Made by a program: the position numbers and the translations under genes. From the IMG/VR virus record IMGVR_UViG_3300033182_000487, positions 49,149-113,148 of that record: a stretch of 64,000 nt of DNA. One strand, given 5' to 3'. The DNA comes from a virus. Each line of letters opens with the position of its first letter. The first letter of the stretch is position 1. Below are positions 7,126 through 30,179 of the stretch, piece by piece. The notes beneath the pieces were generated by a model, which worked only from the letters and a program-made list of their open reading frames with translations, was not told the origin of the DNA and did no database searches.

Positions 7126-7221
7126 ATGACCCCCTCAGACCACAAAGCCCTGATCCGGCTGGCGAGCACCCTTCCTGATGGGGACCGCCTTCGCCGTGCG
7201 ATCCTGCGGAGCGTGAAGTAG
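7126..7221 (+). CDS. 31-aa mini-protein MTPSDHKALIRLASTLPDGDRLRRAILRSVK (stand-alone tag)
   Basis: Not in the ORF track. GAGGA RBS; closely matches the N-termini of 18499..18822 and 29733..30179. Confidence 0.7.
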   Translation: MTPSDHKALIRLASTLPDGDRLRRAILRSVK

Positions 7222-7250
7222 GGGGGTCTGATCTCCCCGCGAACGGGTAA
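7222..7250 (+). promoter_or_regulatory. Class I putative promoter GGGGGTC-N16-GGGTAA
   Basis: Ends 8 nt before the primase ATG, which has no clear RBS (possibly leaderless). Confidence 0.65.
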
Positions 7251-7258
7251 GCCACTCC

Positions 7259-7981
7259 ATGCGAGAGTGGTTGACCAACGCCCTGCTGGACTCTGCTGAG
7301 TCCGTCCCCGAAGAAGCCGAAGGCTACGTCCTCGGACGAGGCTTGCCGTATCGACTGATGGAGGAGATGCGGGTGGGCATCTGGCGCTGGCCGGAAGCCC
7401 CGTGCCCCGACGACACCTTCCTCAAGCGGCATGGGGACAAGGGCTTCCAGGTGGATGGTTGGCTCTCGATCCCTCTGTGGTCACCGCGAGGTCGGATCGT
7501 CGGTGTCGAGTTCCGCCGCTGGGACGGCGAGAAATCCGTGTCGAAGTACTTCCTTCCCGACACGTCCTGGTCCCCGGTGTTCGCGGGCATGACCCCATCG
7601 ACACTCAACCGCATCTGGAAGGGCGGGGACATCTGGCTCGTCGAGGGGGTCTTTGATCTCGCTCTGGCCCACGCTGTGCCACGCAAGGACGTGGTGCTCT
7701 CGTGCGGGGGTGCCAAGATCACGCCCAACCAGGTGGCCTTCATCCAGCGGTTCCTTGATCCTCGTGCGATGGTCCACGTCGCCTTCGACATGGACGAGAC
7801 GGGACGCAAGATGGCCCTCGGCTACCAGCACCCGGACACCGGACGTCGGGTCTGGGGTGTGGTCGAGCGACTGGAGCGTGTAGGCGTCCGATGCCGCGAC
7901 GTCCAGTACCGTGGCAAAGACCCCGGCGATGTTTGGGAGGTTGGGGGATCTGCTGGTTTGCGCCGTGCCTTCCGCCTGTAG
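7259..7981 (+). CDS. DnaG-type primase catalytic (TOPRIM) domain without Zn-binding domain
   Basis: YVLGRGL, GRIVGVEFR, KY, LVEGVFD, FDMDETG, KDPGD motifs. Confidence 0.8.
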   Translation: MREWLTNALLDSAESVPEEAEGYVLGRGLPYRLMEEMRVGIWRWPEAPCPDDTFLKRHGDKGFQVDGWLSIPLWSPRGRIVGVEFRRWDGEKSVSKYFLPDTSWSPVFAGMTPSTLNRIWKGGDIWLVEGVFDLALAHAVPRKDVVLSCGGAKITPNQVAFIQRFLDPRAMVHVAFDMDETGRKMALGYQHPDTGRRVWGVVERLERVGVRCRDVQYRGKDPGDVWEVGGSAGLRRAFRL

Positions 7982-8010
7982 GGGGGTCATCGGAGCGCCC
8001 CGACGGGTAA
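7982..8010 (+). promoter_or_regulatory. Class I putative promoter GGGGGTC-N16-GGGTAA
   Basis: Intergenic repeat motif with 16-nt spacer. Confidence 0.65.
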
Positions 8011-8048
8011 GGATGAAGGACCGAGAACACCTACGACAGGAGGGCCCA

Positions 8049-8519
8049 ATGGCCGTAGACATCTGGAAAGCCAACGACGAAGTACACGCGAAGATCGCGG
8101 AACTGATCGGACAGAACCACCCCGACCTCGCACTGGTCTCCGACGAGATCGTCGTCGTGTTCCGCGAGAAGGCGGGCAAGAGCGGAGGACAGGTCGTCCT
8201 CGGCAACAGCAAGAAGGTCGCGGCCATCGCCAACGCCATCGGCAACACCGACTACAAGTTCGTGCTGGAGGTCGCTGCCGACCAGTGGGAGCACGAGTTG
8301 ACCTCCCGCCAGCAGGAGGCCCTGCTCGACCACCTGCTCACCGCCTGCCGCTGCGAGGAAGACCCGAAGTCGGGCAACCTCAAGTGCAGCGTGGCGAAGC
8401 CGGACATCATGGCCTTCCGCGAGAACGTGGAGCGGTACGGCATGTGGTTCCCGGTCGAGGAGAAGGAAGACGAGGGGCCGTCGCCCGTCGAGGAAATGTT
8501 CGGCGTCGATTCCGAGTAG
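8049..8519 (+). CDS. Putative phage metallopeptidase-like protein (degenerate HExxH)
   Basis: HPDL...G.SKK...F.LEV...W......QQEALLDHLL...KPD...F.ENVERYG pattern; AGGAGG RBS. Confidence 0.55.
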   Translation: MAVDIWKANDEVHAKIAELIGQNHPDLALVSDEIVVVFREKAGKSGGQVVLGNSKKVAAIANAIGNTDYKFVLEVAADQWEHELTSRQQEALLDHLLTACRCEEDPKSGNLKCSVAKPDIMAFRENVERYGMWFPVEEKEDEGPSPVEEMFGVDSE

Positions 8520-8528
8520 GAGGGGACC

Positions 8529-9971
8529 ATGGCCCTCGACACGAAGTATCGGCCCCAGACCTACGGACAGGTGCTGGGTCAGGAGGCCGCTGTGGCCGTC
8601 CTGCGGCAGTTCGTTGTCGAGGGCCGTGGATTCCATCAGTCCTACGTCTTCTGCGGACAGCACGGTTCCGGCAAGACCACCCTGGGGAGGCTCCTCGCCA
8701 GGGCCTTGCTGTGCGAGGCTCCCGTTGATGGGGAGCCTTGTGACCAGTGCTCGTCCTGCACGACCTTCCTGAGCGGCGACGTCCACGAGTGCTTCGTGGA
8801 ACTGGATGCGGCAACGAAGTCCGGGAAGGCTGATCTCGCTCGCATCCTGGAGGACATCCAGTACTCCACGGTGTCGGGCAAGCGCCGCATCTACCTGTTC
8901 GACGAGTCCCATCGGTTGTCGAAGCAGGCGCTCGACGCCCTGTTGAAGCCGATGGAGGACAACGTGCTGGGGTCGGAGGACAAGCGGCTCGTTTGCATCT
9001 TCTGCACCACCGAGCCGGACAAGATGGTCAGCACCATCTTCTCTCGCTGCGCCCCGGCCTTCGTGATCCGCTCCGCACCCCACGCGGAGATCGTGAAGCG
9101 GTTGGGGTGGATCTGCGAGCAGGAAGGCATCGAGGCTGACCCCGAGGCACTGGAACTGATCGTCGAGCAGTCGGAGTCCCACATCCGGGATGCGCTCAAG
9201 ATGGTCGAGGGCGTGTCGATGCTGGGTGGGGTGACGCGGGAGAACGCGGCCACCTACCTCCAGGTGGGGTCCAACGACGGGGTGTTGGACCTTCTGGATG
9301 CTCTGGGGTCTGACCTCTCGGCAGCGGTCGAACGCGCCACCAGCCTCTCGCGAGAGGTGAGCCCAGCCTCCGCTTACGAGCGTCTGGCCGAGGCTGCTAT
9401 GCTGGCTTACCGGGTCCACCTCGGTGTGGCCGGACGAGTCCCGGCGAAGTGGGACGCGGAGAAGGTGGAGGTTTTGTCCTCACAGGGGTCTGCATGGTTG
9501 AATGTGGCTACTCGTTTCGCCGCACCCCCACACCGACCGACGAGACAGACACTGGTGCTGGACGTTGCGACCGCGCACCACTTTTTCGGGGGTCAACTGC
9601 ATCCACAGGCGGGGGGGATCCCCCTGCCACACCCCCCGCCTTCGGTTCCTACGGCTTCCCCGCCCCCGTCCACCAGAGAAACCCGAACACCGTCAACACC
9701 TTGTGATCCTCCCGTGGGTAATGTCGGACATGCTTCCACAGACTCCTCAGCACACCTCACCTCCTCCAACGTCTGGGTTGACCCCAGAGCGGTTGGTGGT
9801 GGTCCGCAGGATCGTGCTGCTCCCACCTCCAACCCAACCGCCCCTACCGGGTTGCACGTCCTCAATCCGAACGTCTTCCGTGAGTTGGTGCAGCACCACC
9901 TGCGGAGGCTGAGGCGTGGACGCACGGGATCAGACAACATGGGTGGTGCTGGAACTCAGCCATCATGGTGA
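8529..9971 (+). CDS. dnaX: DNA polymerase III gamma/tau clamp-loader subunit
   Basis: KYRPQ, GQHGSGKTT, C..PC..C..C Zn site, ELDAA, DESH, ALLKPMED, SRC, RDAL. Confidence 0.9.
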   Translation: MALDTKYRPQTYGQVLGQEAAVAVLRQFVVEGRGFHQSYVFCGQHGSGKTTLGRLLARALLCEAPVDGEPCDQCSSCTTFLSGDVHECFVELDAATKSGKADLARILEDIQYSTVSGKRRIYLFDESHRLSKQALDALLKPMEDNVLGSEDKRLVCIFCTTEPDKMVSTIFSRCAPAFVIRSAPHAEIVKRLGWICEQEGIEADPEALELIVEQSESHIRDALKMVEGVSMLGGVTRENAATYLQVGSNDGVLDLLDALGSDLSAAVERATSLSREVSPASAYERLAEAAMLAYRVHLGVAGRVPAKWDAEKVEVLSSQGSAWLNVATRFAAPPHRPTRQTLVLDVATAHHFFGGQLHPQAGGIPLPHPPPSVPTASPPPSTRETRTPSTPCDPPVGNVGHASTDSSAHLTSSNVWVDPRAVGGGPQDRAAPTSNPTAPTGLHVLNPNVFRELVQHHLRRLRRGRTGSDNMGGAGTQPSW

Positions 9972-10455
9972 GCGAGCCGCCGAGGAGGGGATCCTTGAAG
10001 AAATCCTCCGTGATCACGCGGACCTGGACTACGACCACCCGATCTTCATCCCGTACCTGACCTACACCTACCAGGGGAAGCGGACCCTGCTCTCCGTCAT
10101 GGAGGGCTACGTCTTCGTGGCGTCTGGCTTCGACGACGCCAGCCGCGACCACTTTGCCCGATCCCCCTACATCAAGAAGATCCTCACCCGAGGGGCCAAC
10201 CACTACTCCCCCTACGAGACCGTATCTCAGGCTTCGGTGGACTCTTTGCGCCACCGACTACGCGAACTGATGGCGGTCGAGATCCGGGAGGGGATGGAGG
10301 TCCGTATTGTGGATGGGCCACTCAGTGGTATAAGTGGGAGCGTGGTGGGGGTGTTTGATACACATGCGACCCTCCTCGTAGAGATGCGGTCCATACGCGC
10401 CATCCAATATCTTCCGTGCTTCCTCCTACGACCCGTGAGTGACGAGCATGAGTAA
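9916..10455 (+). CDS. NusG-family transcription factor (NGN + KOW)
   Basis: W..LEL start, MEGYVFV, GMEVRIVDGPLSGISGSV KOW motif. Confidence 0.75.
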   Translation: MDARDQTTWVVLELSHHGERAAEEGILEEILRDHADLDYDHPIFIPYLTYTYQGKRTLLSVMEGYVFVASGFDDASRDHFARSPYIKKILTRGANHYSPYETVSQASVDSLRHRLRELMAVEIREGMEVRIVDGPLSGISGSVVGVFDTHATLLVEMRSIRAIQYLPCFLLRPVSDEHE

Positions 10456-11089
10456 CTATTGGTGCAGCCACATTGTCTTAGACCCCTCCGACATCGAGCG
10501 CATGTTCTCCAACGAGGACGGCCTCTCCACCTTCCCCGGCTCCACGGAGGAACTCTCGGACGAGAGCAAGGCCGAGTTGGAGCAGGTCAAGGGGGTGCTG
10601 GACCAGATCCCTCCCCGCGAAGCGGACTTCGTCGAACTCTACTTCTTCCAGCGCATCCGGCAGACCACCATCGCCTCGCTGTTCAACATCAGCCAGCCAA
10701 CCGTCTGCTACCGCCTGCAACGAGCCGCAGCCCGGATCCGCTACCTCCTCGACATGCCCAAGTACGACCCGTGGTTGATGGAGCAAGACCTCCGGGGCGT
10801 CCTCACTGACCCGAAGGACATCCAGATCATGATGGGCATGGTCGCCACGACCTGCCAGAGCGAGGTCGCGAAGGAACTCGGGGTCACGCAGGGCTTCGTC
10901 CGCCATCGGTACTTCCGCACCATCGGACGGCTCCAGAAGATGCGGGGGATGGAGCAGTACGTCCGGGTCTTTGAGCACGTCGCGGCGAACCTCAACATCC
11001 TCAAGGAGACCCACAGGTCGAAGTGGTCGGAGCCTGTGATCTACGTCGTCTCCGAGCACCCGACAGCGGTCGAAGCACAGCCCGCGTAG
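10448..11089 (+). CDS. Protein with tandem sigma-70 region-4-like HTH domains
   Basis: LDQIPPREADFVELYFF...QTTIASLFNISQPTVCYRLQRA and QSEVAKELGVTQGFVRHRYFR. Confidence 0.7.
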   Translation: MSNYWCSHIVLDPSDIERMFSNEDGLSTFPGSTEELSDESKAELEQVKGVLDQIPPREADFVELYFFQRIRQTTIASLFNISQPTVCYRLQRAAARIRYLLDMPKYDPWLMEQDLRGVLTDPKDIQIMMGMVATTCQSEVAKELGVTQGFVRHRYFRTIGRLQKMRGMEQYVRVFEHVAANLNILKETHRSKWSEPVIYVVSEHPTAVEAQPA

Positions 11090-11097
11090 GGGTAGGT

Positions 11098-11112
11098 CGG
11101 TAGTCGCTCTAT
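11098..11112 (+). promoter_or_regulatory. Class II (late) motif CGGTAG-N5-CTAT
   Basis: Exact consensus, about 34 nt before ATG 11146. Confidence 0.75.
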
Positions 11113-11145
11113 TCCATTTCTCCTGTGAGACTTTGGAGCGAGAGC

Positions 11146-11466
11146 ATGGAAGACACGAAGACCGTATCTGTCCGCCGGGTCGCGATGGCGAAGCGGCTTG
11201 CGGCGAAGTGGATCCGATCTCACGCAGAGCCCGAGTACCGTCTCACGGTCTACCGGGGGTCAGGTCGTGAGTCCCGGAATCTGCCCGGACTGCTGCGGTC
11301 GTTCCGTGACGGCAAGATCAAGATCGCCGCGACCGAGCCAGTCCGCGACATGGGCATCAAGGCGGCCTTCGACCACATCACTGTCTGGTCGAAGGACAGG
11401 GAGGGGCTCCAGCGCCTCTCTGATGCCCTCCAGAAGATGGGCTGCGAAACCACAGGGGTCTTCTGA
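11146..11466 (+). CDS. Hypothetical protein with RVA/RLAAKW tag
   Basis: GGAG RBS; follows class II motif. Confidence 0.65.
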   Translation: MEDTKTVSVRRVAMAKRLAAKWIRSHAEPEYRLTVYRGSGRESRNLPGLLRSFRDGKIKIAATEPVRDMGIKAAFDHITVWSKDREGLQRLSDALQKMGCETTGVF

Positions 11467-11894
11467 TGGCAGCGTCCCTCGCCCAGTCTGAGTTCGTCTA
11501 CAGGTCGGGCACGAGCCCGGACATCTACACGTTCACCATCGTTTCCGATTCCCAGGGGAACCTGTCGGTGCGGGACATCGAAGACCCCTATGGGTTCGTG
11601 ATCTCGCCGTACACCCAGATCCCGCAGAGCGTGACCGCCGACATCTCCTCTGCCATGTCAGCCGTGGAGACTATTTTGGCACTCACATCAGCCGTCAACG
11701 GCACCCTGACCTTCACCGCTGAGACATCGAAGTCCGTGACCTTCGCCGAGGCGTTCGCCGACACCTCGTACCGAGTCCAGACGACCTCCGATGTCTTCGC
11801 CCCCTTCCGCATCACAAACAAGACCGTCCTGGGCTTCACCATCCAGGCCGGAGCCACCATCACCGGGACCGTCGGGTACGACGTCTTCGTGTGA
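11466..11894 (+). CDS. Putative virion protein; C-terminal domain shared with 38354..39913
   Basis: SKSVTFAEAFADTSYRV...ITNKTVLGFTI resembles SETITFDIPAPDTNYTV...IRNKTATEFRI. Confidence 0.55.
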   Translation: MAASLAQSEFVYRSGTSPDIYTFTIVSDSQGNLSVRDIEDPYGFVISPYTQIPQSVTADISSAMSAVETILALTSAVNGTLTFTAETSKSVTFAEAFADTSYRVQTTSDVFAPFRITNKTVLGFTIQAGATITGTVGYDVFV

Positions 11895-11897
11895 TCA

Positions 11898-11912
11898 CGG
11901 TAGCGAGCCTAT
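11898..11912 (+). promoter_or_regulatory. Class II motif CGGTAG-N5-CTAT
   Basis: Exact consensus, about 30 nt before ATG 11942. Confidence 0.75.
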
Positions 11913-11941
11913 GCCCCCGTGGGGGTGACTGGAGATTCACA

Positions 11942-13870
11942 ATGACCACACTCCCCATCGAGCGTACTGCTTCGACCTTGCGCAAGGTCAAGTCCATCCT
12001 TCGTCGGTCGGGCCTTCTGGACAAGGTTGAACTTGGCGGACGAGGCAGCGATTGGAACGTCGAGGCTCCCGATGGGACGATCCAAGAGCAGGTTTCCGAC
12101 GCGCTCCGCAAAGCCGGGATCAACGTCGGCGGCTACCGCACCGGATACGGCGCATGGGTCTTGAGCGAGTCGTACCAGACCGACGACTACGACTTCAACA
12201 ACCCGGCGAGCCGCAGCCACTACGCCTCGGATCACCTGCCTGTCGAAACCCGCACCGCCGCGTCGTTCTTCGACATGTTCTTCAAGGAGAAGAACGTCCC
12301 GTACAAGGTCTTCGACGTGACGGACTCGCAGGGGATCACGCACAGCATCCCCAACGAGGTCGTGATCAACATGATCAAGCAGACCCGTGGCCGCGAGAAG
12401 GCGAAGATCGAGGAGACGCTTCGCATGATCGACTTCAAGAACGGGGATGTGAACCACTACCTCCAGCACCTCGCTCGCGGTCTGGCCGAGCAGTACAGCG
12501 GAACTCTCCGCTTCGCTTCCGAGCAGCAGGCCGAGAAGTTTGAAGCCGAGGCCGAAGCCGCCGAGGCACAGGCCGAAGCCGACCGCCAGAAGGCCGATGC
12601 CTCCCGCTTGAAGGCGGCGGGTCTTGGACCTGTCGCCCAGACCATCCTTGACCAGATGGGTGGCAATCGAGTTCTGGCGATGCTTGGGGTCAACCGCCTT
12701 GTTGATCTCCGCAACGGCATCGGGATCGGCTGGCCCAACCGCCAGCGGTCGAAGGGCAACTACGTCGAGATCATGCTCAACGGGAAAGACCTGTACGACA
12801 TGACCTTCTACAACCTCTCCATGCGGGGGAAGAAGAAGGTCAAGGAGTTCAAGGATCTCTACAACGACTCGCTGGCCGATACCTTTGAGGGTCAGACGGG
12901 GTGGTATCTCCGCATGGCGTCCGACAAGGCCGCTGCTGGTGGCCTCTACGGCTACACGAAGGGCACCCAGCGGGACGTGGAAGCGTCCATCCGCAAGGCC
13001 CAGCGCCGTGCCGCCAGCATCGCCAAGACCCTCTACGCGAAGGACGAGCGGAGCGTGGACTTCTTGAAGGCCCACGCGAAGCGGGCCAACAGCAAGACCG
13101 CTCGCCTGATCCTGGCTGCCATGAAGACCATCGGACCCCGCGTGGCGTCCGAGACGCTTCCGAGCGAGCGTCATGCCTCGATCTACCACGCCTCTGAGCA
13201 GGAGCAGTTGGAGTACGTCGTCGATGCTCTCCGTCTGGCGGGTGAGCAGGGACTCCGTGTGGACGGCCTCCCCCGCAAGGGTGCCCTGGCCGCTCAGAGC
13301 AAGGGCCTTGCCGACGCCGAGCGCGGCTACCTCTACATCACCCGGAAGGGTCGGAACGTCCGCATGGCTGCCGAGGAGAAGGTCGCTGGTGGCCTCTACG
13401 GCTACCCCACGAAGACCGCCCGTCTCGCACTGGTCGCTTGCTCCGACCTCCGCGCCTACGTCGGCGAGGTTGCCTACGGGCTGCACAGCCGCCGCACGGC
13501 CCGGTACGACCGGATCACCGGCTTCCTCAAGGAGCACGGCAAGACCGCGAAGTGCGCCTACTCCCGCATGATCCTCGACTGCTACCCCGACGCTCCGGTG
13601 TCGAAGCAGGCGAAGGAGGAGTACCCCTGGCCCGAGTGCATCGCTGACCAGGAGAAGCAGTACGGCAGCAAGGAGACCGCCGAGAAGGTCTGCGGCAAGA
13701 TCAAGGCTCAGTCGCAGGGCAAGAGCGCAGGGGCCAAGGACTATGGGATCATGGGGGGCAAGTTGGCCTCCAGCGAGATGCTCAAGAAGGCGTTCGTTCC
13801 TGACTCGGTGGACGGCTGGCTGGAGTGGGAGGACGGCTCCCGTACCGCTGCCACCCGACGCCGTGGTTGA
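11942..13870 (+). CDS. Multi-module (polyprotein-like) hypothetical protein
   Basis: Small domains separated by RTA/RFA/RMA/RVA/RHA/KVA/KQA linkers; two GGLYGY domains; start moved to the ATG with GGAG RBS. Confidence 0.75.
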   Translation: MTTLPIERTASTLRKVKSILRRSGLLDKVELGGRGSDWNVEAPDGTIQEQVSDALRKAGINVGGYRTGYGAWVLSESYQTDDYDFNNPASRSHYASDHLPVETRTAASFFDMFFKEKNVPYKVFDVTDSQGITHSIPNEVVINMIKQTRGREKAKIEETLRMIDFKNGDVNHYLQHLARGLAEQYSGTLRFASEQQAEKFEAEAEAAEAQAEADRQKADASRLKAAGLGPVAQTILDQMGGNRVLAMLGVNRLVDLRNGIGIGWPNRQRSKGNYVEIMLNGKDLYDMTFYNLSMRGKKKVKEFKDLYNDSLADTFEGQTGWYLRMASDKAAAGGLYGYTKGTQRDVEASIRKAQRRAASIAKTLYAKDERSVDFLKAHAKRANSKTARLILAAMKTIGPRVASETLPSERHASIYHASEQEQLEYVVDALRLAGEQGLRVDGLPRKGALAAQSKGLADAERGYLYITRKGRNVRMAAEEKVAGGLYGYPTKTARLALVACSDLRAYVGEVAYGLHSRRTARYDRITGFLKEHGKTAKCAYSRMILDCYPDAPVSKQAKEEYPWPECIADQEKQYGSKETAEKVCGKIKAQSQGKSAGAKDYGIMGGKLASSEMLKKAFVPDSVDGWLEWEDGSRTAATRRRG

Positions 13871-13959
13871 CAGGAGGGTGAGAAGCGGTCGCTTCCACAC
13901 TCCCATCCCCACCCCGAAGACATTGACGAATGGAACCCCGTGATCGAGGACGACGAGAC

Positions 13960-14790
13960 ATGAGCCAGCACCAGCGCGACAAGCAGGCGTACTTGAACGC
14001 CACACCCATGCAGCGGGAAGTGGTGCGTCGGCTCCTGTGCGACGTGCTGGCGTGTTTGAGAGCGCAGTATCTCTCGTACCAGACCTCGCACTGGCAGGTC
14101 GTCGGACAGTCCTTCTACGGCAACCACCTGCTGTTTGAGCGGCTGTACTCGTCCGTCCTGCTCCAGATCGACTCCCTCGCCGAGAAGTTGGTCGGCTACC
14201 TCGGGCGTGACGTCGTTGACCTCTCCGGCCAGTTGGAGAAGATCTGGGAGTACACCTCGGTGTGGACGCAGATCGACTGCCACCACAAGCGAGGCATCCG
14301 GTCAGAGCAGGACATCCAGGCCGCGCTCCAGCGTGCCTACGACGGGATCAAGCAGGCCAAGGCGATGACCCTGGGCCTCGACGACTGGATCATGGCCACG
14401 GCCAACATCCACGAGGAGAACGAGTACCTCCTCCAGCAGGCGCTGACCCCAGTGCCCGGACAGAAGCGGGCATCGACCGACGAGGGCTACTTCTACGACG
14501 CCCCCGACCACCACGTCGTCCTGGACTTCGCAAAGAGCCGCGCCATCACCAACGATGTGGATGTCGCCAAAGACGCTGCCGCCGAAGATCACCTCGACAT
14601 TCCCGAATCACAGGCTGTCACCGAAGCCGAGGAAGCCCCGCCTCTCCCGACGGAGATCGCGCAGGAGCCTGGTGGCGCATCCGTTTCCACGCTGAATCAG
14701 TACGTCATCACGTCGGAAGACCCCGTGGCTGAGAAGGCTGTCGCCATGAACAAGGCCCACATGGCCGCATGGCTCAAGGAGTTGACCTGA
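13960..14790 (+). CDS. Dps/ferritin-like protein with acidic C-terminal extension
   Basis: HWQVVGQSFYGNHLLFERLY...IDSLAEK Dps signature. Confidence 0.8.
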   Translation: MSQHQRDKQAYLNATPMQREVVRRLLCDVLACLRAQYLSYQTSHWQVVGQSFYGNHLLFERLYSSVLLQIDSLAEKLVGYLGRDVVDLSGQLEKIWEYTSVWTQIDCHHKRGIRSEQDIQAALQRAYDGIKQAKAMTLGLDDWIMATANIHEENEYLLQQALTPVPGQKRASTDEGYFYDAPDHHVVLDFAKSRAITNDVDVAKDAAAEDHLDIPESQAVTEAEEAPPLPTEIAQEPGGASVSTLNQYVITSEDPVAEKAVAMNKAHMAAWLKELT

Positions 14791-18203: not shown

Positions 18204-18484
18204 ACATCACCGATCCGGTCACCGTCGAGGAGTGGGGCCAGTACATCAGCAAACTGAGCGGGGCGAAGTTGTTTTCGCAGGCCATCGCCGCCAACACCCT
18301 CGACTTCGTGTTGGGGTTGCAAGAGGAAGGCTTTGGCAGCGACGAGATCACTGACATCCTGCTCATGTTCGCCCGCCAGTTCGACAAAGTCGATCTGGAC
18401 CTTCCCAACGGCATCCCTGGCGAGTACCTGTCCTACCCGGACCTGCTCGACTCGGTAGACCGTCTATCAGCCTCCCAGACGTAA
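18200..18484 (+). CDS. Hypothetical protein
   Basis: AGGAG RBS, ATGA overlap. Confidence 0.65.
   Translation: MNITDPVTVEEWGQYISKLSGAKLFSQAIAANTLDFVLGLQEEGFGSDEITDILLMFARQFDKVDLDLPNGIPGEYLSYPDLLDSVDRLSASQT
18453..18467 (+). promoter_or_regulatory. Class II motif CGGTAG-N5-CTAT
   Basis: Exact consensus, about 32 nt before ATG 18499. Confidence 0.75.
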
Positions 18485-18498
18485 AGGAGAACCCCACC

Positions 18499-18822
18499 AT
18501 GAAGTCCCTGACTGCTTCCGACCGCAAGACCCTCATTCGCCTCGCCTCGACACTCCCTGTGGGTGACGAGACTCGCAAGGCCATCCTCACCGGACTCGCC
18601 CAGACCCGCGAGGCTGGACGCCCCTGGGGCGGCCCCGGCTACGCGGCGAAGGCCGAGGACTACGACATCCCTCCCGCCCAGGGCGGCAGCGGCTCCCCGC
18701 CGTGCCAGCCGCTGGGTGACGGTCCCTGCTACCGGAAGCACGAGAACTCGCCTCCCGGCGGCACGAACGGCTCCGCGCAGCGCGCGAAGTACAACCAGTG
18801 GTATCGCGAAAACGCGATGTAA
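18499..18822 (+). CDS. Small protein with LIRLASTLPxG N-terminal tag
   Basis: AGGAG RBS; shared leader sequence. Confidence 0.75.
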   Translation: MKSLTASDRKTLIRLASTLPVGDETRKAILTGLAQTREAGRPWGGPGYAAKAEDYDIPPAQGGSGSPPCQPLGDGPCYRKHENSPPGGTNGSAQRAKYNQWYRENAM

Positions 18823-20180: not shown

Positions 20181-20618
20181 ATGAGCAAACTACGCACCAT
20201 CCTCGCCTCCGAGGGCCTGTACCTCGTGAAGAACAAGAAGGTGAAGTCCGAGTTGTGGCGTCGGCTCGCCGGGCGCGGTGACACATGGGGCCGCCGCCTC
20301 AATGAACTGAAGGCGGAATACATGCGTGAGGTCGTTGACGAAGCGGTCATCACCCTTCGGGTTGAAGGCGGGGCGAGAAGCGGCGAAGACACGAAGGTCA
20401 AGGGCAGTGTTCACGGTGTTGTCGGAGAGGTTCAGGGCACCTTCAAGGGTGAACCAGTCAAGTTGAGGTATCGGTGGGTGGATGGCGTCAAGACCATTGA
20501 GTCGGACCTCTCCATTGGCCGTGCATCGAAGAAGCACAAGATGGTCGTGTTGTCCTCGTCTCCGGCGAGTGTCGCCTCCGACAGCCTGTACGCGCACATC
20601 GGCGGGTTGATCTCCTGA
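20181..20618 (+). CDS. Hypothetical protein with LRTILASEGL N-terminal tag
   Basis: AGGAG RBS; leader shared with 37663..38097. Confidence 0.7.
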   Translation: MSKLRTILASEGLYLVKNKKVKSELWRRLAGRGDTWGRRLNELKAEYMREVVDEAVITLRVEGGARSGEDTKVKGSVHGVVGEVQGTFKGEPVKLRYRWVDGVKTIESDLSIGRASKKHKMVVLSSSPASVASDSLYAHIGGLIS

Positions 20619-20629
20619 CTCTGGGAATC

Positions 20630-20644: not shown

Positions 20645-20682
20645 GCCTCGTCTCTGGGTGACTGACACCAACCGGAGGCATC

Positions 20683-21507: not shown

Positions 21508-21530
21508 TCGGGGGTTGAGGTAGGTGATCC

Positions 21531-21707: not shown

Positions 21708-21902
21708 GCACAGCCCCTCGTCGATCAGGTGCATCGCCTCCCGTCCGAACCAGCCCTGGAGGCTCCAGGCCAACCCGGTGTCGATCAACTCCTGCCAAGC
21801 CGCGTAGTACGCCTTCTCCTGCTCCTCGGGCGTCTCTCCCGGAGGTTGTTCCACCCCTTCGCAGATCAGGACGGTTTTCAACGCTGGCAACGGCTTGCTC
21901 AT
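21669..21902 (-). CDS. Small phage-type hypothetical protein
   Basis: WQELIDTGLAWSLQGWFGREAMHLI motif recalled from small phage proteins. Confidence 0.65.
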   Translation of the reverse strand: MSKPLPALKTVLICEGVEQPPGETPEEQEKAYYAAWQELIDTGLAWSLQGWFGREAMHLIDEGLCSKPEVNDGDPTT

Positions 21903-21950
21903 GGGTCCACCGTACCCCGTGGGTAAGGTAGGCGCACAGAGAGGTCACGA

Positions 21951-22412: not shown

Positions 22413-22421
22413 AGCGCCGTT

Positions 22422-22436
22422 CGATACCCCGTCTAT
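22422..22436 (+). promoter_or_regulatory. Class II motif variant CGATAC-N5-CTAT
   Basis: Intergenic, upstream of tail sheath. Confidence 0.55.
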
Positions 22437-22530
22437 ATCCGGCAGCAGGTAGGTAACACTGGCCCTCGTTGGTCGGGATCCCGCGCTTGCACCCTCTCAG
22501 CACCGCTGAGTCAAGATCACGAGGTTCACC

Positions 22531-25500
22531 ATGGCATTCCCAGGCTCCGTCTACGCCCCTCCGGGCGTCTACACCCAGACTCTCTTTGAAGACCCGCTCC
22601 AGAGCATCGCGGGCAACGTCCGCATCCCCCTGCTCATTGGCACCGGGTCCGAGATCCTGACCCAGAGTGGTCTGGAGTTGGTGCGCGGCTCCTCCTCCTC
22701 GGTTGACCAGCGTGTCGTCCAGGAAGACGAGACGGCTCGCGCCGTGGTGTCCATCACGGAAGCCGGACTCGTGACCCTCGGAGCCTTCGACAGCGTCCTG
22801 GACCGCATCCAGACGAAGCACTACCCCATCGTGAACGGCAACGGCACGGGCACCACGGCGACTGACTCCGCGTCGGTCAACGTCACCATCAACGGTGAGC
22901 CTGTTGTGGTCCTCGCCATCGACGGTGCGAAGGGCATCCTCACCCTGTCGAGCAGCCCTGATCCGGGCGACGAGGTGAAGGTCACCTACTACTTCAACCG
23001 CACCGACACCCTGATCACCGACACCCTCAGTGACCAGATTTCTCCCGACGCTCCCGAGATCATCGGCGCGGTCGGCGAGTCCTACGTCGTCATCGAGGGC
23101 GTCAACGACACGCTCTCCTTCACGGTGGACAGCGCCACCGTCGTGGACGTGACCATCACTCCTTCCGCCCCTGCTGGTTGGTCGGCTGCACAGGTCGCCT
23201 CGTTCATCAACGCCGCCGCTGCTGGGACGAGCCTCTCGGCTTCGACCACGGTGAACAACCTCGGCCAGACGGTGCTCTACCTGACCGCTGACCGCGACAT
23301 CGTCGTCGGCAACGGCCTGGCAAACACCACCCTCGGTCTGGACCTCGGTGCCGACACCGCCCGGAACAAGACCTTCTACACCTTCCAGCGTCCCATCGTG
23401 GACGGGTCGAACGGTGGTGTCACCACCACGGACCCGGCGGACGTGACAGTCAAGGTGGACGGCACCCAGGTGATCCCGACCTCTGTGGACGGGGCTTCCG
23501 GTGCTGTGGTCCTCCCCTTCGCGCCAGAAATCGGCGCTGTGGTCACCTGCCAGTACTACTTCAACTCGTGGCAGGACACGTTCGACTACCTCCAGCACCG
23601 AGGCGTCGTCGAGATCACCCAGTGCGGGATCACGCCTGACCGCAACGACTACATCGACGGTGCGGACTTCGTTTTGAAGGACGACAAGATCCTCTGGGGC
23701 ACCGCAGTCACCACCGAGGCTGGCGTCCACACCACGGGCAGCGCCTACTTCGACGACGTGCAGATCTCCACGACCCTGGTGGACACCCGCCAGTACCTGG
23801 CCGCCTGCTCCCCTGTGGTCAACACGAGCGTCAACCCGCCCGTCGAGAACCGCAAGGACTTCACCCTCCCGCTCCAGCCCACCACCGGAAACGGTCGCTC
23901 CACCCCGCTGGGTGCCGAGACCTACTCCAAGGTGGCCAACGGACGGGTTGACCTCCCGACTGACCGCCCTGATCTCGTGTGGGCCTACTGGGGCTTCTCC
24001 CTGGAGGACGCTCTGGACCGTGGCCGCGTCGAGGTCACGAAGGTCGAGTCCTCGACCAGCACCATCACCCTGCGTGAGCCGGTGCCCGTCGGCGCGACCG
24101 TCTACGCCACCTTCTACTACAACACCCTCGTGGACCAGGCGTACAGCGTTGCCTGTGACACCGCTGGTGCAAGCGGTGTGGGCACCTACTCGGTGACCAA
24201 CGAGGCCGGAACCTCGCTCCTGACCCCGCAGTTCGGCTCCAAGAGCGCCGCGCTCGCCACGGTCACCGTCGAGTTCCCGAGCGGCTCCGAGCGCACGCCG
24301 GACTGCCGCTTTGAGAGCCCGTTCGACACGTCGTCGTTCGTCGGCCCTGTCGAGGAGGACGTGACCGTCACGTTCGCTTCCCAGGACGCGACCCTGGCGA
24401 AGTACACGCTCCCCGGCTCCGGTCCCTACTACATGGTCCAGAACGCCAGCGACCAGTTGTCCATCAACATGGACAACTCGGGTGCTCCCGGCGACATCGA
24501 CCTGTCCTCGGTCAGCCGTGCATGGGTTGTCGGTGACGAGGTCGTCTACAGCCCCGACGGCTCCAACGAGTACGAGGACGGCGTGGCGACGACCAACAAC
24601 GAGGTCGATCTGATGATCGACGGCGTGTTGATCCAGTCACGGGCCGATACGGGTGACCGCACGGCCATCGTCGCGACTGACTTCCAGGACATCGGACGTT
24701 ACGCACAGTCCATCAACCGCGCAGCCTTCGGTGACTACGCCGATGCTGCGGGTGGTGTGCTCGTGCTCGCAGCGTCAACGGATGCGAACAACTTCCAACT
24801 GGACGCCGAGGCTTCCAACATTGACGACTACTACGTCGGCTGGACCGTCCGCATCACCAGTGGTGCTGAAGCAGGTAGCGAGGCCACCGTCACGTCCTAC
24901 AACGGCACCACCAACGCGGTGGTCGTCGGTGCGGGGCTCGGTGGTGATCCTGGTTTGGCCAACTACGTCCTCTACAACCCGGACGCGCTTCCGGTGTTGA
25001 AGGCTTCCACGCGCTTCCTGTCCTCGCTCACCATCGCAGCGGGCGAGTTCGACATCATCAACTGGCGCATCGTCGGTTCGTCCGCGACCATCACGGGCAC
25101 GACCCTCGGGATCGAGACTGCTGCTTCCGGTGGTGTGTTCACGTCGGCTACCGCTCTGGCAACCGACGTGCAGACCGTGTTGCAGAACTCCATCAACGCT
25201 GTTGCTGCTGTCCCTGCCATCGCTCCGCAGGTGCTTGTCTCGGCAGACTCCGACGGACGGCTCAACTTCAAGTTGGTCCCCGATGGGGCTGACCTTGAGG
25301 GTGCCTACCTGGAGTTCATCACCGACGGAACCCCCGCGCAGGACTTCTGTGTCCTCGCCGGTCTGGACACCGACACGGCTGGTGGCAGCCAGACTCACCT
25401 CTACAACAGGGCCATCGCCAGCACCTTTGAGTTCGCGGGTGCTACCACCACCCTGCGCCTCAACGACCGTCTGTTCCTCCAGAACCGCATCCGTCCCGGT

Positions 25501-27699
25501 GCTGGAACGGCCAACATGGACACCCAGTTCGTGCTCGACCAGTGCCAGTTGAAGGTGATGGGAGGCACGGGCCTCGCCCAGGCCGCCCTGACCGCCAACG
25601 AGCAGGGCTACGCCGCCATCCGGGCCACCATCATGCCTCCTACCACCTACGGTGAGGTCGGCTTTTCCGGTGGACAGGACGCTGCCGGACAGCCTGTCGT
25701 GACCTTCTTCGCGGCTGGTGGCACCACCGACCAGAACAACGTCTTCCAGATGACCTACGAAGGCACTCCGATCACCGTCGAGTTCACCGACTCGGCAGGT
25801 GCTCCGATTGCTGCCGGTGGTTCGGCAGACGTTCCGCTGGGGCCACTGACCGATGGGAACAGCATCCTGGGTCAGATCAGCGCAGCCATGACCGCCGCTG
25901 GGGTCACGGGGATTTCTCAGGAGGGTGCGGGCATTCGCTTCCGTGGTTCCTCCTCGGCGTCCTCGGCCACCATCGTCATCGGTAGCGGCAACGCCAACAC
26001 CGACCTGGGCTTCGACGACGGCGACATCGTGTACCGCACGGACGTCTCCGTGGAGTCCCTGGTCAGTGTCCTCAACTCCAGTACCCTCTGGAACGACGGC
26101 TCTGGACGCGGCTTCGCCAAGACCGTTCGGGACGACACCAACGCTTCCTTCCTGTACCTCCAGAGCACGGGTACGTCGGGCGCTGGTACGACCTCCTCCA
26201 TCGCCATCGAGGATGCAGCAGCCGACAACGCTCTGCGCCCCGGCAGCGGTCTGGGGGCCACGGACGGCGACGGCAACGTGGGTGAGGCGGCCATCGACGG
26301 CTTCTTCGTCACCTCGTCTGATCCCGTGTCCGGTTCGGGTACGGCCAACACCTCCATCCTCAACTCGGGAACGGGTCAGGACGGCGATGTCGGCGCGACC
26401 TACCGTGACCTGGTGACCGGCCTGACCTTCACCATCCTGCCCCGTGCAGGTGGCGCGGCCTACCCGGTCGGTGCGACCCTGACCTTCACGGTCCGGGCGG
26501 GCGTCACGACGGATGCCAACCTCCCGGTCAACACCATCCCCGGTGTAGAACTCTACGTCTCCAACACCTCCGGGATCACCGTTGGTGACACCGCTGTGGT
26601 GCAGACCTACGAGAAGGGCGGCAACCAGCCTGCCGTGGGCGACCTCTACTACGTCTCCTACGACTACCGGAAGCAGGACTACAGCACCCAACTGTTCACG
26701 AAGCAGTCGGCTGTGGAGGCCACCTACGGTGCAGCGGGCCCGGTCAACCCGGTTTCGCTGGCTGGCTACCTGGCCATCCTCAACGGGGCGGTCCTGATCG
26801 CCATCAAGCAGGTGGAGAAGGACACCGACTCCGACTCCGACGGCACGAACGACAGCGCCAGCACGGACGCTTTCCTCGCCGCCATCGACGAGGTGGAGGG
26901 GACGCTCCCTGGTGGGGCCTACCCGGACTACCTCGTTCCGCTCAAGGGTGACTCCCTGGAGTTGTTCCAGTACCTCGCACGGTCCTGCGACATCCAGTCG
27001 AGCATCCGCTACCGCGCCGAGCGCACCGCGATCTGTGGCCTGTCCGCAGGTACGCAGCCGCGTGAAGCCGGTGAGACGGCGGAAGCCATCGCCCGGACCC
27101 GGATGCGCCTCGTGTACCCGGACATCTGCACCCTGAGCCTGTCGCGGGCCGACGGGACCACGGACTCCTACCTGCTCGACGGCACCTACCTCGCCGCCGC
27201 GTGGTCCGGGAACCGTGCCTCGCCGACCATCGACGTTGCGACCCCGTGGACCCGTGGCCGGATCTTCGGCTTCGACGAACTGGCTCGCAAGATGGATGCA
27301 GTCCAGCAGAACCAGGTCGCTACTCGCGGTGTCACGGTGTTCAACCAGCGCCAGAGCATCGTCGAGTGCCGCCAGGGTCTGTCCACCGACATGACCAACG
27401 TGCTGACCAAGACCCCGACCGTGATCACCATCGCGGACGAGGTCCAGCGCCAGGCTCGTGCCACCCTGGACAAGTTCATCGGGATCAAGTTCCTGTCGAA
27501 CGTGACCACGACCATCGAGGGCCAGTTGTCCAAGACCCTCAAGCAGTTGGTCGCGGCTCAGATCATCAACACCTTCACGGGCGTCACCGCCAACGTGTCA
27601 CCTGATGATCCGACCGCTGCCGAGGTGGAGGCGTACTACCAGCCGGTGTTCCCACTTTTGTACATTATCGTGACCTTCAACCTGCGCTCAAGTCTTTGA
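22531..27699 (+). CDS. Contractile tail sheath protein, very large (1722 aa)
   Basis: N-terminal YAPPGVYTQT; C-terminal sheath core ending AEVEAYYQPVFPLLYIIVTFNL. Confidence 0.85.
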   Translation: MAFPGSVYAPPGVYTQTLFEDPLQSIAGNVRIPLLIGTGSEILTQSGLELVRGSSSSVDQRVVQEDETARAVVSITEAGLVTLGAFDSVLDRIQTKHYPIVNGNGTGTTATDSASVNVTINGEPVVVLAIDGAKGILTLSSSPDPGDEVKVTYYFNRTDTLITDTLSDQISPDAPEIIGAVGESYVVIEGVNDTLSFTVDSATVVDVTITPSAPAGWSAAQVASFINAAAAGTSLSASTTVNNLGQTVLYLTADRDIVVGNGLANTTLGLDLGADTARNKTFYTFQRPIVDGSNGGVTTTDPADVTVKVDGTQVIPTSVDGASGAVVLPFAPEIGAVVTCQYYFNSWQDTFDYLQHRGVVEITQCGITPDRNDYIDGADFVLKDDKILWGTAVTTEAGVHTTGSAYFDDVQISTTLVDTRQYLAACSPVVNTSVNPPVENRKDFTLPLQPTTGNGRSTPLGAETYSKVANGRVDLPTDRPDLVWAYWGFSLEDALDRGRVEVTKVESSTSTITLREPVPVGATVYATFYYNTLVDQAYSVACDTAGASGVGTYSVTNEAGTSLLTPQFGSKSAALATVTVEFPSGSERTPDCRFESPFDTSSFVGPVEEDVTVTFASQDATLAKYTLPGSGPYYMVQNASDQLSINMDNSGAPGDIDLSSVSRAWVVGDEVVYSPDGSNEYEDGVATTNNEVDLMIDGVLIQSRADTGDRTAIVATDFQDIGRYAQSINRAAFGDYADAAGGVLVLAASTDANNFQLDAEASNIDDYYVGWTVRITSGAEAGSEATVTSYNGTTNAVVVGAGLGGDPGLANYVLYNPDALPVLKASTRFLSSLTIAAGEFDIINWRIVGSSATITGTTLGIETAASGGVFTSATALATDVQTVLQNSINAVAAVPAIAPQVLVSADSDGRLNFKLVPDGADLEGAYLEFITDGTPAQDFCVLAGLDTDTAGGSQTHLYNRAIASTFEFAGATTTLRLNDRLFLQNRIRPGAGTANMDTQFVLDQCQLKVMGGTGLAQAALTANEQGYAAIRATIMPPTTYGEVGFSGGQDAAGQPVVTFFAAGGTTDQNNVFQMTYEGTPITVEFTDSAGAPIAAGGSADVPLGPLTDGNSILGQISAAMTAAGVTGISQEGAGIRFRGSSSASSATIVIGSGNANTDLGFDDGDIVYRTDVSVESLVSVLNSSTLWNDGSGRGFAKTVRDDTNASFLYLQSTGTSGAGTTSSIAIEDAAADNALRPGSGLGATDGDGNVGEAAIDGFFVTSSDPVSGSGTANTSILNSGTGQDGDVGATYRDLVTGLTFTILPRAGGAAYPVGATLTFTVRAGVTTDANLPVNTIPGVELYVSNTSGITVGDTAVVQTYEKGGNQPAVGDLYYVSYDYRKQDYSTQLFTKQSAVEATYGAAGPVNPVSLAGYLAILNGAVLIAIKQVEKDTDSDSDGTNDSASTDAFLAAIDEVEGTLPGGAYPDYLVPLKGDSLELFQYLARSCDIQSSIRYRAERTAICGLSAGTQPREAGETAEAIARTRMRLVYPDICTLSLSRADGTTDSYLLDGTYLAAAWSGNRASPTIDVATPWTRGRIFGFDELARKMDAVQQNQVATRGVTVFNQRQSIVECRQGLSTDMTNVLTKTPTVITIADEVQRQARATLDKFIGIKFLSNVTTTIEGQLSKTLKQLVAAQIINTFTGVTANVSPDDPTAAEVEAYYQPVFPLLYIIVTFNLRSSL

Positions 27700-27736
27700 G
27701 CCCCAATACAAACGAGCAGCGTTTAGGTTGCTAATG

Positions 27737-27777
27737 ACCCTCCGGTCGGGTAGATTCCCGACCGGAGGGTTTCGTTT
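27737..27777 (+). terminator. 14-bp hairpin + U-rich tract (terminator; also covers next RBS)
   Basis: ACCCTCCGGTCGGG-TAGATT-CCCGACCGGAGGGT followed by TTCGTTT. Confidence 0.75.
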
Positions 27778-29289
27778 ATGGACTGCTCAATCTGTGGTTT
27801 CACCGTCTCCAACGCACGGGGACTCGTCGCTCACTTCCGCCACCAGTCGGACACGCATCCCGACTACAAGGAGTGGTCTGAGGAGCAGAAGTGGAAGGAC
27901 AAGACCGAGGGGGTGGACTTCGTTCGGTGTCGGGAGTGTGGGTTCCGCTCCAAGAGCCTCGCCCGACACTTGAAGTCGGCACATGGGTTCACCGCCGACG
28001 AGTACCGGGAGAAGCACGGGGCAGACGCTCCGACCCGATGCAACAGCACGGAGGCGAAGCGTCGTGCTGGGATCAAGGCGGCTCACGCCCGTACCGACCG
28101 TAAGGGACAGACCAAGACGGTTGCCTGTACGGGCTGCGGGGTGGACACCGAGATCGCTCTGTTCGCTGCTGCACCCACAGCGGTTTGCGGTGCCTGTCGG
28201 GATTCAGTGTGGGAGGGCAAGTCAGAGCCAGAGGACTTCGTGACTTGTCTCGACTGCGGACACCGTGCGGAGAACCTGACCAGCCATGTCACCAACGCCC
28301 ACCCAGACTACCGAGATCGCCACCCGGATGCGGTGATGGTGGCGTTGCGCTCCGCTGTTCGGGACAAGGAAGCCTTGCGGGGTCGTACCTTGTCTTCCGA
28401 GGTGCGGGCGAAGATGTCTGCCAACGCGGGTCGGTGGAACAAGGGCTTGACGAAGGAGACGCATCCCAGCCTCCGTTCGGCTTCGGAGAAGATGCGGACC
28501 AAGGTGCCGTGGTCGAAGGGTCTGACTGCGATGACGGACGAACGGCTCCAGCAGACGGTGGCGAAGTTGAGGCTCTATGTGGGGGAGAGCCGTCCGTGGT
28601 CGAACGGGTTGAAGGCCGACCTCACTCTGGAGGACTTTCAGCCGTTCCTTGATGATGAAGGCTGCGTGGATCGTCGTGCCATCGTGGAGGCCACGGGTCT
28701 GTCATGGCGGACGATCTTCACCTACATGCAGTCGCTTGATCTGGAGACTTCGGACAAGTACATCCGAGAGCGGTCAGAAGACCAGATCATCAGGCTCGAC
28801 CGAGAGGTGTTGGAACAGTCGTTGATGGAGAACGGGAAGGCTTGCATCGCCCGGATCATGCGTGACACCGGGCACTCGTTCTCGGTGGTCAAGAGGGAGT
28901 GCGCCCGACACGGGTTGGAGATGTTCACCCGAATGGGTGAGCAGATCCTTGTGCTGGACGCGATCTCGGAGGCGTTGGGGGGCAAGCCGTACAAGATGGA
29001 GTGGAAGGATTGGAGGTTCGTCAACCCCGCTACAGGTTGGCGTTTCAAGTTCGACGGCTACTTCCCCGATGTGGGGTTGGTGGTCGAGTATCACGGGCAT
29101 CAGCACTACATCTTCCCGAATGCTTGGCACTACAAGCCCGAGCACAAGGAAGCATGGCACGCGATGTTGGAGCGCGACCGGATCAAGAAGGAGATGGTCG
29201 AGGCGTCAAGTGATCTCACCTACTTGGAAGTCCGCTTCGATGACTCGTTGACCTCGGTAGATTTCTACCGGGGCTTGCTTCGTCGGTAG
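27778..29289 (+). CDS. Free-standing homing-endonuclease-like protein: Zn fingers + NUMOD3-like repeats + Vsr-like nuclease
   Basis: C2H2/MucR-like fingers; WNKGLT/WSKGLT/WSNGL repeats; FDGYFPDVGLVVEYHGHQHY...RDRIK; atypical codon usage. Confidence 0.7.
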   Translation: MDCSICGFTVSNARGLVAHFRHQSDTHPDYKEWSEEQKWKDKTEGVDFVRCRECGFRSKSLARHLKSAHGFTADEYREKHGADAPTRCNSTEAKRRAGIKAAHARTDRKGQTKTVACTGCGVDTEIALFAAAPTAVCGACRDSVWEGKSEPEDFVTCLDCGHRAENLTSHVTNAHPDYRDRHPDAVMVALRSAVRDKEALRGRTLSSEVRAKMSANAGRWNKGLTKETHPSLRSASEKMRTKVPWSKGLTAMTDERLQQTVAKLRLYVGESRPWSNGLKADLTLEDFQPFLDDEGCVDRRAIVEATGLSWRTIFTYMQSLDLETSDKYIRERSEDQIIRLDREVLEQSLMENGKACIARIMRDTGHSFSVVKRECARHGLEMFTRMGEQILVLDAISEALGGKPYKMEWKDWRFVNPATGWRFKFDGYFPDVGLVVEYHGHQHYIFPNAWHYKPEHKEAWHAMLERDRIKKEMVEASSDLTYLEVRFDDSLTSVDFYRGLLRR

Positions 29290-29304
29290 TCGTCTGTTAC
29301 TGTC

Positions 29305-29650
29305 GCTTTGCCCGCAAGGGTACCTTCTTGGTTCTCGTAGCCGAGAAGGTGGTAGGGGTTCAATGCCTTCCACCGGGCGAGCCTACTATCAACTTGAGGG
29401 GTGGGTTCCTCTCTTTCCTCCAAGCCTTTGGTTTAGGGGGAGCCTGTCGAGCAAGGTTCTGGCTCGACACGGAGGCTTCAACGCTTCCGTAAAAGGCATG
29501 GGTCGGTCGGGCGTTTCGTGCTCCCAAGATCGACCCGAGACCCTTCGGGGACTCCAAAATAGCCGCCATCGCCATCGCGATCACGGAGTGCGCCTTCCTT
29601 TCGGCACACTCCCCAAACCCCCAGTAAGGTATCGTCCACTGGGGGTTTGG
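29305..29650 (+). ncRNA. Candidate structured non-coding RNA
   Basis: Intergenic with many stems, GCAA and TTCG tetraloops, and a terminal 13-bp hairpin; strand inferred. Confidence 0.45.
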
Positions 29651-29672
29651 TCTATCTGGGGGCTTCGTTCGT

Positions 29673-29687
29673 CGGTAGGGAGCCTAT
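29673..29687 (+). promoter_or_regulatory. Class II motif CGGTAG-N5-CTAT
   Basis: Exact consensus. Confidence 0.75.
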
Positions 29688-29732
29688 GGGCTCACCACAG
29701 GCATCAAGACTTCTCGTAGGAGTGGCCCCATC

Positions 29733-30179
29733 ATGCCCCGCATCATCACCGCCGCTGACCGATCTGCTCTCATTCGTCTGGCGAGCACCCTCCCTGCGGG
29801 CTCTGAGGAGCGGAAGGTGATCCTCGCCGGGTTGAAGCAGGCCCGCGCCCCCCGTGAGAACCAGACGGCTGGTCGCCTATCGGCTGATATGCGGAAACGA
29901 GAGGACGAGATCGAGTTCCTGTCCAGCGCGGGCGGCAAGGTGTTGAAGACCTACAGGAGCGTCTGGATGGAAGCCGCGAGGCTGGCGGAAACCTATGAGG
30001 GGTCGCCAAGTTACTCCCCTGATAGTGATTGGGGTGTTGAACAGGATCAGCGGGAGATCACGAACCAACTTGGTATGCAGGCGGCATCACTGAGGCAGAC
30101 GGCACAAAGGCTTCGGCAGTTGGTTGATGAACTGGAATCCTTCGCCGCTCAGGCGAAGAAGGTCGCTGATTCGTTCTAA
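29733..30179 (+). CDS. Protein with LIRLASTLPxG N-terminal tag + helical domain
   Basis: AGGAG RBS; shared leader, then KQA linker. Confidence 0.7.
   Translation: MPRIITAADRSALIRLASTLPAGSEERKVILAGLKQARAPRENQTAGRLSADMRKREDEIEFLSSAGGKVLKTYRSVWMEAARLAETYEGSPSYSPDSDWGVEQDQREITNQLGMQAASLRQTAQRLRQLVDELESFAAQAKKVADSF

Follow-up and report, generated by a model that had tools for sequence, protein, structure and literature searches.

A helical peptide tag shared by unrelated proteins of uncultured huge phages: a possible head-targeting signal and putative anchor of cargo exchange

Why should a phage encode, inside its replication block, a peptide of 31 amino acids (aa) that is repeated at the beginning of two larger and otherwise different genes? 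This case is met in a 64,000-nucleotide (nt) stretch of uncultured phage DNA, bases 49149–113148 of the 113-kb IMG/VR record IMGVR_UViG_3300033182_000487 (hereafter the window, with positions counted from its first base unless stated otherwise). A reading made from the sequence alone had noticed there three shared peptides, at 7126, 18499 and 29733, and explained them by a portable promoter+tag cassette that recruits new cargo. All three are present as placed, on the + strand. The genes at 18499 and 29733 do diverge after the shared leader: BLASTP aligns their residues 2–37 only (64% identity), so the remainders of the 107-aa and 148-aa products can be considered unrelated. The promoter-like motif CGGTAG-N5-CTAT was indeed found 31–45 nt upstream of all three copies, with a 4-nt spacer before 7126, and the stand-alone copy does lie within the replication block, flanked by a conserved 180-aa gene and a Toprim gene, with a clamp-loader gene nearby. 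For the function of the shared peptide, hereafter the tag, we give about even chances to its being a head-targeting propeptide similar to the capsid-targeting sequence (CTS) of phage T4, that is, by analogy, an address label that would load its cargo into the phage head.

Copies of the tag are not confined to gene starts. The whole 113-kb record holds nine of them, at N-termini, inside proteins and at C-termini, and among those outside the window one is internal and two are C-terminal, which does not agree with the description of the peptide as a leader only; given this distribution, it is rather a portable module. With a profile made from the record’s copies the nine sites scored 45.6–57.9 bits and the next six-frame match −1.2 bits, which excludes chance similarity. 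Eight positions of the tag are invariant (I, R, L, A, G, R, I, L), and its consensus reads M-x-R-x-L-T-A-S-D-R-x-A-L-I-R-L-A-S-T-L-P-x-G-S-x-E-R-[KR]-A-I-L-A-G-L. An “IRLA” segment of a scaffold-like protein, considered as a tenth copy, was rejected because of its noise-level score with the profile rebuilt from true copies. An exhaustive profile search among 1.84 billion representative proteins registered the tag in 1,586 clusters at E<=1e-3 and in 537 at E<=1e-10, and a word-indexed search gave at least 1,235 longer proteins carrying it. No family of Pfam or PHROGs covers it, tblastn against 50,697 GenBank phage records, T4-type phages included, gave no match, and the ESM Atlas contained no usable one. 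The tag family is large and undescribed in the libraries searched. In related records 7 (G001), 24 (G002), 12 (G003) and 6 (G006) copies were counted; a profile search found none in a 485-kb uncultured relative, in Tunturiibacter phage Tunturi_5 and in Bacillus phage G, and there are zero tags in relatives with 80–88% identical capsid protein, including one complete 312-kb genome. Since such close relatives do without the tag, it is a lineage-specific addition.

The way in which the copies differ from each other is informative as well. The tags at 29733 and 19594 (the latter outside the window) are 93% identical as protein and 69% identical as DNA, with the same codon used for 33% of identical residues, and other tag pairs have a similar codon pattern. 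High protein identity combined with divergence of synonymous codons indicates that the tag is translated and kept under purifying selection; judging from this pattern, selection acts on the tag peptide and not on the DNA. The idea that the tag is a recently mobile DNA repeat was rejected, synonymous sites being saturated.

The proteins that carry the tag are highly diverse. Among 90 non-redundant carriers at least eight unrelated kinds of Pfam domain were recognised, most of the carriers matching nothing. The list comprises ADPrib_exo_Tox, which also matches the Alt-like ADP-ribosyltransferase (phrog_802), RNA ligase, pentapeptide repeats, Fusellovirus VP2-like DNA-binding, beta-solenoid repeats, DUF2958, L5 gp82-like and ParB-like domains, and the identifiable carriers of the 90 include no named family of replication, tail or capsid-shell proteins. 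Both cargos of the window are orphans: the 107-aa gene has no Pfam or PHROG family match, and the cargo of 29733 has a single homolog cluster, 94% identical. Proteins of 34–48 aa that consist of the tag only recur in other contigs, some of them on 11–29 contigs.

AlphaFold2 folded the 29733 protein (63 aligned carriers) with one helix at residues 7–19, a turn (LPAGS) and another helix at residues 25–38, all with a predicted local distance difference test (pLDDT) of 89–97, followed by a linker with pLDDT 55 and two long cargo helices, the tag remaining free of its own cargo. The model of P0127, a protein with two tags, contains the same hairpin twice. According to these models the tag is an autonomous helix-turn-helix of about 30 residues on a flexible tether. 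Such a shape, together with invariant Arg at two positions, could belong to a small nucleic-acid-binding element (SAP/HeH-like) by which enzymes and small proteins are tethered to DNA of the phage or its host. Part of the cargo (the RNA ligase, the VP2-like domain and the ParB-like family) is linked with nucleic acids, and DNA binding would give the small tag-only proteins a function. This function seems nevertheless improbable, as no SAP, HeH or HTH family matched any tag in Pfam scans at E<=0.01–0.1, conserved acidic residues are as numerous in the consensus as basic ones, and no solved structure was matched significantly by either sequence profile or fold: the sequence-profile search of PDB with the tag gave four matches of chance level only (E>=0.067), none of them a SAP or HeH domain, and the Foldseek comparison of the two-tag model with PDB gave nothing below E=2.6.

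The 120 best-matching proteins contain 274 tags, 99 of them N-terminal, 118 internal and 57 C-terminal. Two tags are present in 84 of these proteins and three in 35, one tag at each end of the cargo being a common layout. Many internal tags are preceded by Met and 3–4 residues, as expected if tag-led genes were fused to an upstream gene. The dominance of proteins with two or three tags among these best matches is compatible with one more function, namely that of a self-associating or hub-docking module, whose hairpins would pair into four-helix bundles, so that single-tag proteins attach to three-tag hubs of 878 aa. The network formed in this way could lie outside the capsid as well; an inner body, a condensate and a replication-factory scaffold are conceivable. 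The three-tag 878-aa family is indeed found in the tag-bearing relatives G001 and G006 and in none of five tag-less relatives, and the nine conserved hydrophobic positions of the hairpin require a surface to pair with. The two-tag model of P0127 reached a predicted template modelling (pTM) score of 0.56 despite its disordered linker; this is weak evidence, however, as single-sequence AlphaFold readily packs amphipathic helices. Besides, the tag is free of its own cargo in the 29733 model, and protease-like sequences flanking the tags are left unexplained. On balance we find a hub-docking function rather unlikely, and it is compatible with head targeting, as the hub could belong to the head core.

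The layout with two terminal tags bears directly on the 31-aa gene. Two proteins matching its full version, P0055 (308 aa) and P0081 (306 aa), have a tag at each end; both begin with MTPSDHKALIRLAS and end with ...KKASDRxALIRLAxxLPxGDxxRRAILRSVK, and their cargos between the tags give no mutual alignment. The 7126 peptide is the start of the N-terminal tag of P0055/P0081 joined exactly to the end of their C-terminal tag, the collapse being an in-frame loss of 277 codons across 17–21 shared bases. In contigs of four runs from four studies, strains about 98% identical to the window have 815 nt extra between window positions 7206 and 7190 (X1 contig). The full 306–308-aa gene is present in all four wild strains and the collapsed form in none of the four runs; their contigs also have one more base in the motif, giving the canonical 5-nt spacer. 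A search of IMG/VR for P0055 and P0081 themselves gave one distant match only. Because the peptide joins the start and end tags of an intact gene, 7126 can be considered an emptied cassette, which is one of the two options offered by the sequence-only reading; by this comparison it is a two-tag gene that has lost, in frame, the cargo between its tags. The version in the window may be a rare deletion allele, or else the assembly has collapsed across the 17–21-nt repeat.

The other option was a competing peptide, that is, a working small protein, for instance a competitor for the receptor of the tag, instead of a remnant. The open reading frame (ORF) keeps all invariant tag residues and has a GAGGA ribosome-binding site ahead of its ATG, and similar tag-only proteins exist, as mentioned above, on up to 29 contigs. 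Their recurrence suggests in addition that tag collapses may be common and sometimes persist. In this particular locus, however, the whole 157-bp cassette is missing in G001 (L009), nine other relatives are also without an insert at the junction, and the four wild-strain runs hold the long gene only; the spacer of the motif is one base short of canonical, and a pattern search found the tag variant TLPDGDRLRR in no other viral contig. A working peptide at 7126 is, therefore, an option to which we give little credit. Two more relatives have about 2.2 kb of different tag genes at the same junction.

Replacement of cargo can be followed at other loci by comparison with G001, the closest relative, whose flanks have about 88% nt identity. 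The 18499 ortholog is kept there together with tag and cargo (L035:3190–3519). At 29733, motif and tag are kept (window 29656–29852 versus L035 12863–13054, 76.5% nt identity), and the cargo is unalignable; the swapped segment is bounded by motifs at 29673 and 30181. The 19063 locus, outside the window, has likewise retained its motif and tag in G001 with unalignable cargo, and G001 has one extra promoter+tag gene between two motif copies. As the tag, often with the motif, is the sole sequence conserved at such loci, it may serve also as a recombination anchor behind which cargo is exchanged or lost. Thus, of the cassette proposed from the sequence alone, portability, unrelated cargo and acquisition of new cargo (two syntenic loci with swapped cargo) have held, while its recent spread as a DNA unit is contradicted by saturation of synonymous sites. 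Whatever the tag does, gene turnover here is anchored on a conserved coding tag, and cargo is exchanged between identical N- and C-terminal tags.

Several other differences from G001 were registered. Two tandem tag genes (171 aa and a 57-aa mini-gene) at G000:C1:19054–19761, outside the window, correspond to one in G001, with different cargo, and the mini-gene has no counterpart there. A segment of about 1.95 kb (27703–29656) with a gene for a 503-aa Ros/MucR zinc-finger protein (27778–29289) is missing in G001 and replaced by 46 bp. The preceding gene (22531–27699), about 89% identical to that of G001 at the nt level, encodes a 1,722-aa protein, the last 90 residues of which weakly match the tail-sheath C-terminal domain. 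Directly 3' of the 29733 gene there is a gene for a Peptidase_C39-like protein (30194–31105), the G001 counterpart of which has 559 aa and a repeated C-terminal extension.

As to the promoter-like motif, tCGGTAG-N5-CTAT occurs at 18 sites of the 113-kb record, all of them 25–45 nt ahead of a start codon and in the orientation of the gene, and for its stricter form 5 sites were seen versus 0.03 expected by chance. In the record it stands before five of the seven tag genes (p about 1e-3 to 5e-4) and also before the genes flanking portal; of seven tag genes examined in relatives, four have it too. Behind CGGTAG-N5-CTAT there are, in addition, several small unrelated genes headed by a second short leader, M-x-x-LR-x-IL-[AS]-[SE]-EGL (window 20181–20618; L035:2488–3180, 5388–5759 and 13432–13674). 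The one at 20181 is a mosaic, in which this second leader is combined with 16 residues identical to the C-terminal end of the extra tag protein of G001. Positions of the main elements are collected in Table 1.

Table 1. Motifs and tag-bearing genes of the window, and tag copies in the rest of the record
Feature	Position	Strand	Description
Promoter-like motif	7077..7091	+	CGGTAG-GTTT-CTATG, 4-nt spacer, 35 nt before the 7126 start
Promoter-like motif	18453..18467	+	CGGTAG-ACCGT-CTAT(C)
Promoter-like motif	29673..29687	+	CGGTAG-GGAGC-CTAT(G); kept with the tag in G001
Tag-only ORF	7126..7221	+	31 aa, MTPSDHKALIRLASTLPDGDRLRRAILRSVK; GAGGA 5 nt before ATG; profile score 51.6 bits
107-aa gene	18499..18822	+	N-terminal tag 18511-18603, REA/G junction, Pro/Gly-rich cargo with two Cys
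148-aa gene	29733..30179	+	N-terminal tag 29748-29840, flexible linker near residues 41-50, two-long-helix cargo
Tag copies outside the window (six)			N-terminal copy; 57-aa mini-gene; three in one 878-aa protein (N-terminal, middle, C-terminal); C-terminal copy on the - strand

The genomic setting is that of a large aquatic phage. The window has 63% guanine plus cytosine and almost all of its genes on the + strand; besides the replication block with its Toprim (primase-like) gene, clamp loader and SNF2-type helicase, it contains the large terminase, portal (35915–37618) and a head module. Since the 113-kb record is judged 25% complete, the whole genome can be estimated as roughly 440 kb. Near-identical DNA is present in marine, estuary and other aquatic metagenomes of at least nine studies, no RNA data set being listed among the sequencing runs, and blastn of the helicase gene against GenBank phages gave no match. 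The Gp23 capsid family had no match either, nor did it have any in the controls. The major capsid protein (290 aa, 57614–58486) is 88–99% identical in the best 80 of 526 IMG/VR contigs encoding a relative, and its identity is 85% to the 485-kb uncultured phage, 50% to Tunturi_5 and 40% to phage G. The head module also contains a decoration-like gene and a 931-aa ORF (52492–55287) with a weak match to head-maturation proteases (residues 121–215) and Hint/intein domains (209–636), which is probably, to judge by these matches, a gene for prohead protease with an intein in it. The gene that separates this ORF from the decoration/capsid genes (55284–56759) encodes a very acidic product of 491 aa with repeated KKK[AS][SA]L..DR..R.ERVL modules, probably the scaffolding/core protein.

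A protease-like signature is found both at tag borders and in this module. The motif [KR]xA[SAG] adjoins 29% of downstream and 37.5% of upstream tag borders versus about 4.5% expected (p<1e-26), which means a 6–8x excess over expectation. Within the window, unusually many sites of this kind occur in the scaffold-like protein (10, p=0.001) and in two proteins of modular build, encoded at 11891–13870 (17 sites, p=1e-6) and 42509–44785 (11 sites, p=0.008); replication and tail genes have few of them. Both modular proteins are candidate polyproteins that might be cut by the same protease. The capsid protein has a single site of this type, K24-L25-A26-A27, which is invariant in 20 of 20 aligned sequences.

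Cleavage near a shared peptide might also have a different meaning. Multi-copy leader-peptide families combine one leader with many variable tails, and the tag pattern is similar; the tag could then be a leader of bacteriocin or ribosomally synthesized and post-translationally modified peptide (RiPP) type, removed for export or modification of cargo by the C39-like peptidase encoded directly after 29733. But tags occur inside proteins and at C-termini too, large enzymes are among the cargo, the tag ends with A-G-L-x-K and has no Gly-Gly-type site, and the C39-like gene is without a transporter part, no ATP-binding cassette (ABC) transporter being present. We find this explanation hardly credible.

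Types of cargo, usage of the motif near portal as well, and protease-like flanks together favour head targeting. Accessory proteins of various kinds would be attached by the tag to the scaffold/core, or to the capsid from inside, while the head is being assembled. Cleavage at neighbouring [KR]-x-A↓[S/A/G] sites by the head-maturation protease would afterwards remove the tag, and the cargo would enter the head and be delivered together with DNA. We infer in this way not only the targeting itself, but also a receptor, the cleavage and the delivery into the host. A wider version, which we propose tentatively and trust somewhat less, would be that in marine huge phages related to phage G the tag, at either end of proteins or inside them, brings interchangeable effectors, dozens in each genome, into the head, and that the same tags are homology arms for swap, fusion and deletion of cargo. 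Several observations weigh against head targeting. Only about a third of tag borders are flanked by [KR]-x-A-[SAG]. Relatives with 80–88% identical capsid protein lack the tag, so that the system is dispensable and its receptor need not be the capsid protein. The T4 CTS has 10 residues and is strictly N-terminal, whereas this tag has 30 and is position-independent, and tag-only proteins have no obvious role in a pure targeting model. If head targeting is true, the tag marks an arsenal of ejected proteins of widespread uncultured marine huge phages, dozens of mostly unknown proteins per genome with an Alt-like ADP-ribosyltransferase among them, and gives a simple sequence handle to find them in metagenomes; protein encapsulation, too, could profit from a compact position-independent tag that loads an HK97-fold shell.

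Small helical peptides placing proteins inside viral or virus-like shells are well known. The scaffolds of P22 (gp8) and the 80alpha/SaPI1 protein CpmB bind capsid by C-terminal helices or a helix-turn-helix, the tail of herpesvirus scaffold is cut at the Ala↓Ser M-site, and encapsulins have cargo-loading peptides. Such a peptide suffices to place a protein inside an HK97-fold shell and can be common to unrelated proteins, and herpesviruses release it by x-A↓S cleavage. In the AlphaFold2 models the tag resembles scaffold-type elements in being a small autonomous helix-turn-helix. Unlike it, the scaffold and encapsulin peptides are single, C-terminal and present on one or two proteins per virus.

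The closest parallel in phages is the CTS of T4, reportedly described by Mullaney and Black in 1996 on internal proteins IpI–III and Alt. In T4, Alt and the internal proteins, which are unrelated, reach the prohead core by means of a short propeptide that gp21 subsequently removes (PMC9026906, PMC5694885); Alt and Ip proteins are packaged via this N-terminal signal (PMC9026906, PMC12373910), and Alt is trimmed at both ends (PMC9026906, PMC5694885). In both systems a single short peptide recurs on accessory proteins that evolve fast and have nothing else in common. An Alt-like ADP-ribosyltransferase is among its carriers, close relatives differ in these loci, and a protease-type motif is found where tag and cargo meet; propeptides at both ends are present in T4 Alt as well. 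The two peptides have no sequence similarity, however, and 30 residues with a predicted helix-turn-helix stand here against 10–20 residues of the CTS. The tag is found at N-termini, inside proteins and at C-termini, in 2–3 copies per protein and 7–24 or more per genome; its putative cut is [KR]-x-A↓[SAG] versus L/I-x-E↓, and tag-only genes exist.

Turnover of tagged genes also has its counterpart in T4-type phages, where promoter-bounded gene shuffling is known (PMC2839356, PMC4122927), and in the variable internal-protein loci of T-even phages, whose genes are recognised by their common N-terminal packaging signal (PMC12373910). As in the promoter early stem-loop (PeSL) cassettes of T4-type phages (PMC2839356, PMC4122927), a short conserved promoter-type motif bounds variable genes, and insertions, deletions and replacements between close relatives start and stop at this motif. 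The difference is that the conserved anchor reaches here into the coding region through the tag, and at 7126 the anchors on either side, an N-terminal and a C-terminal tag, are both coding.

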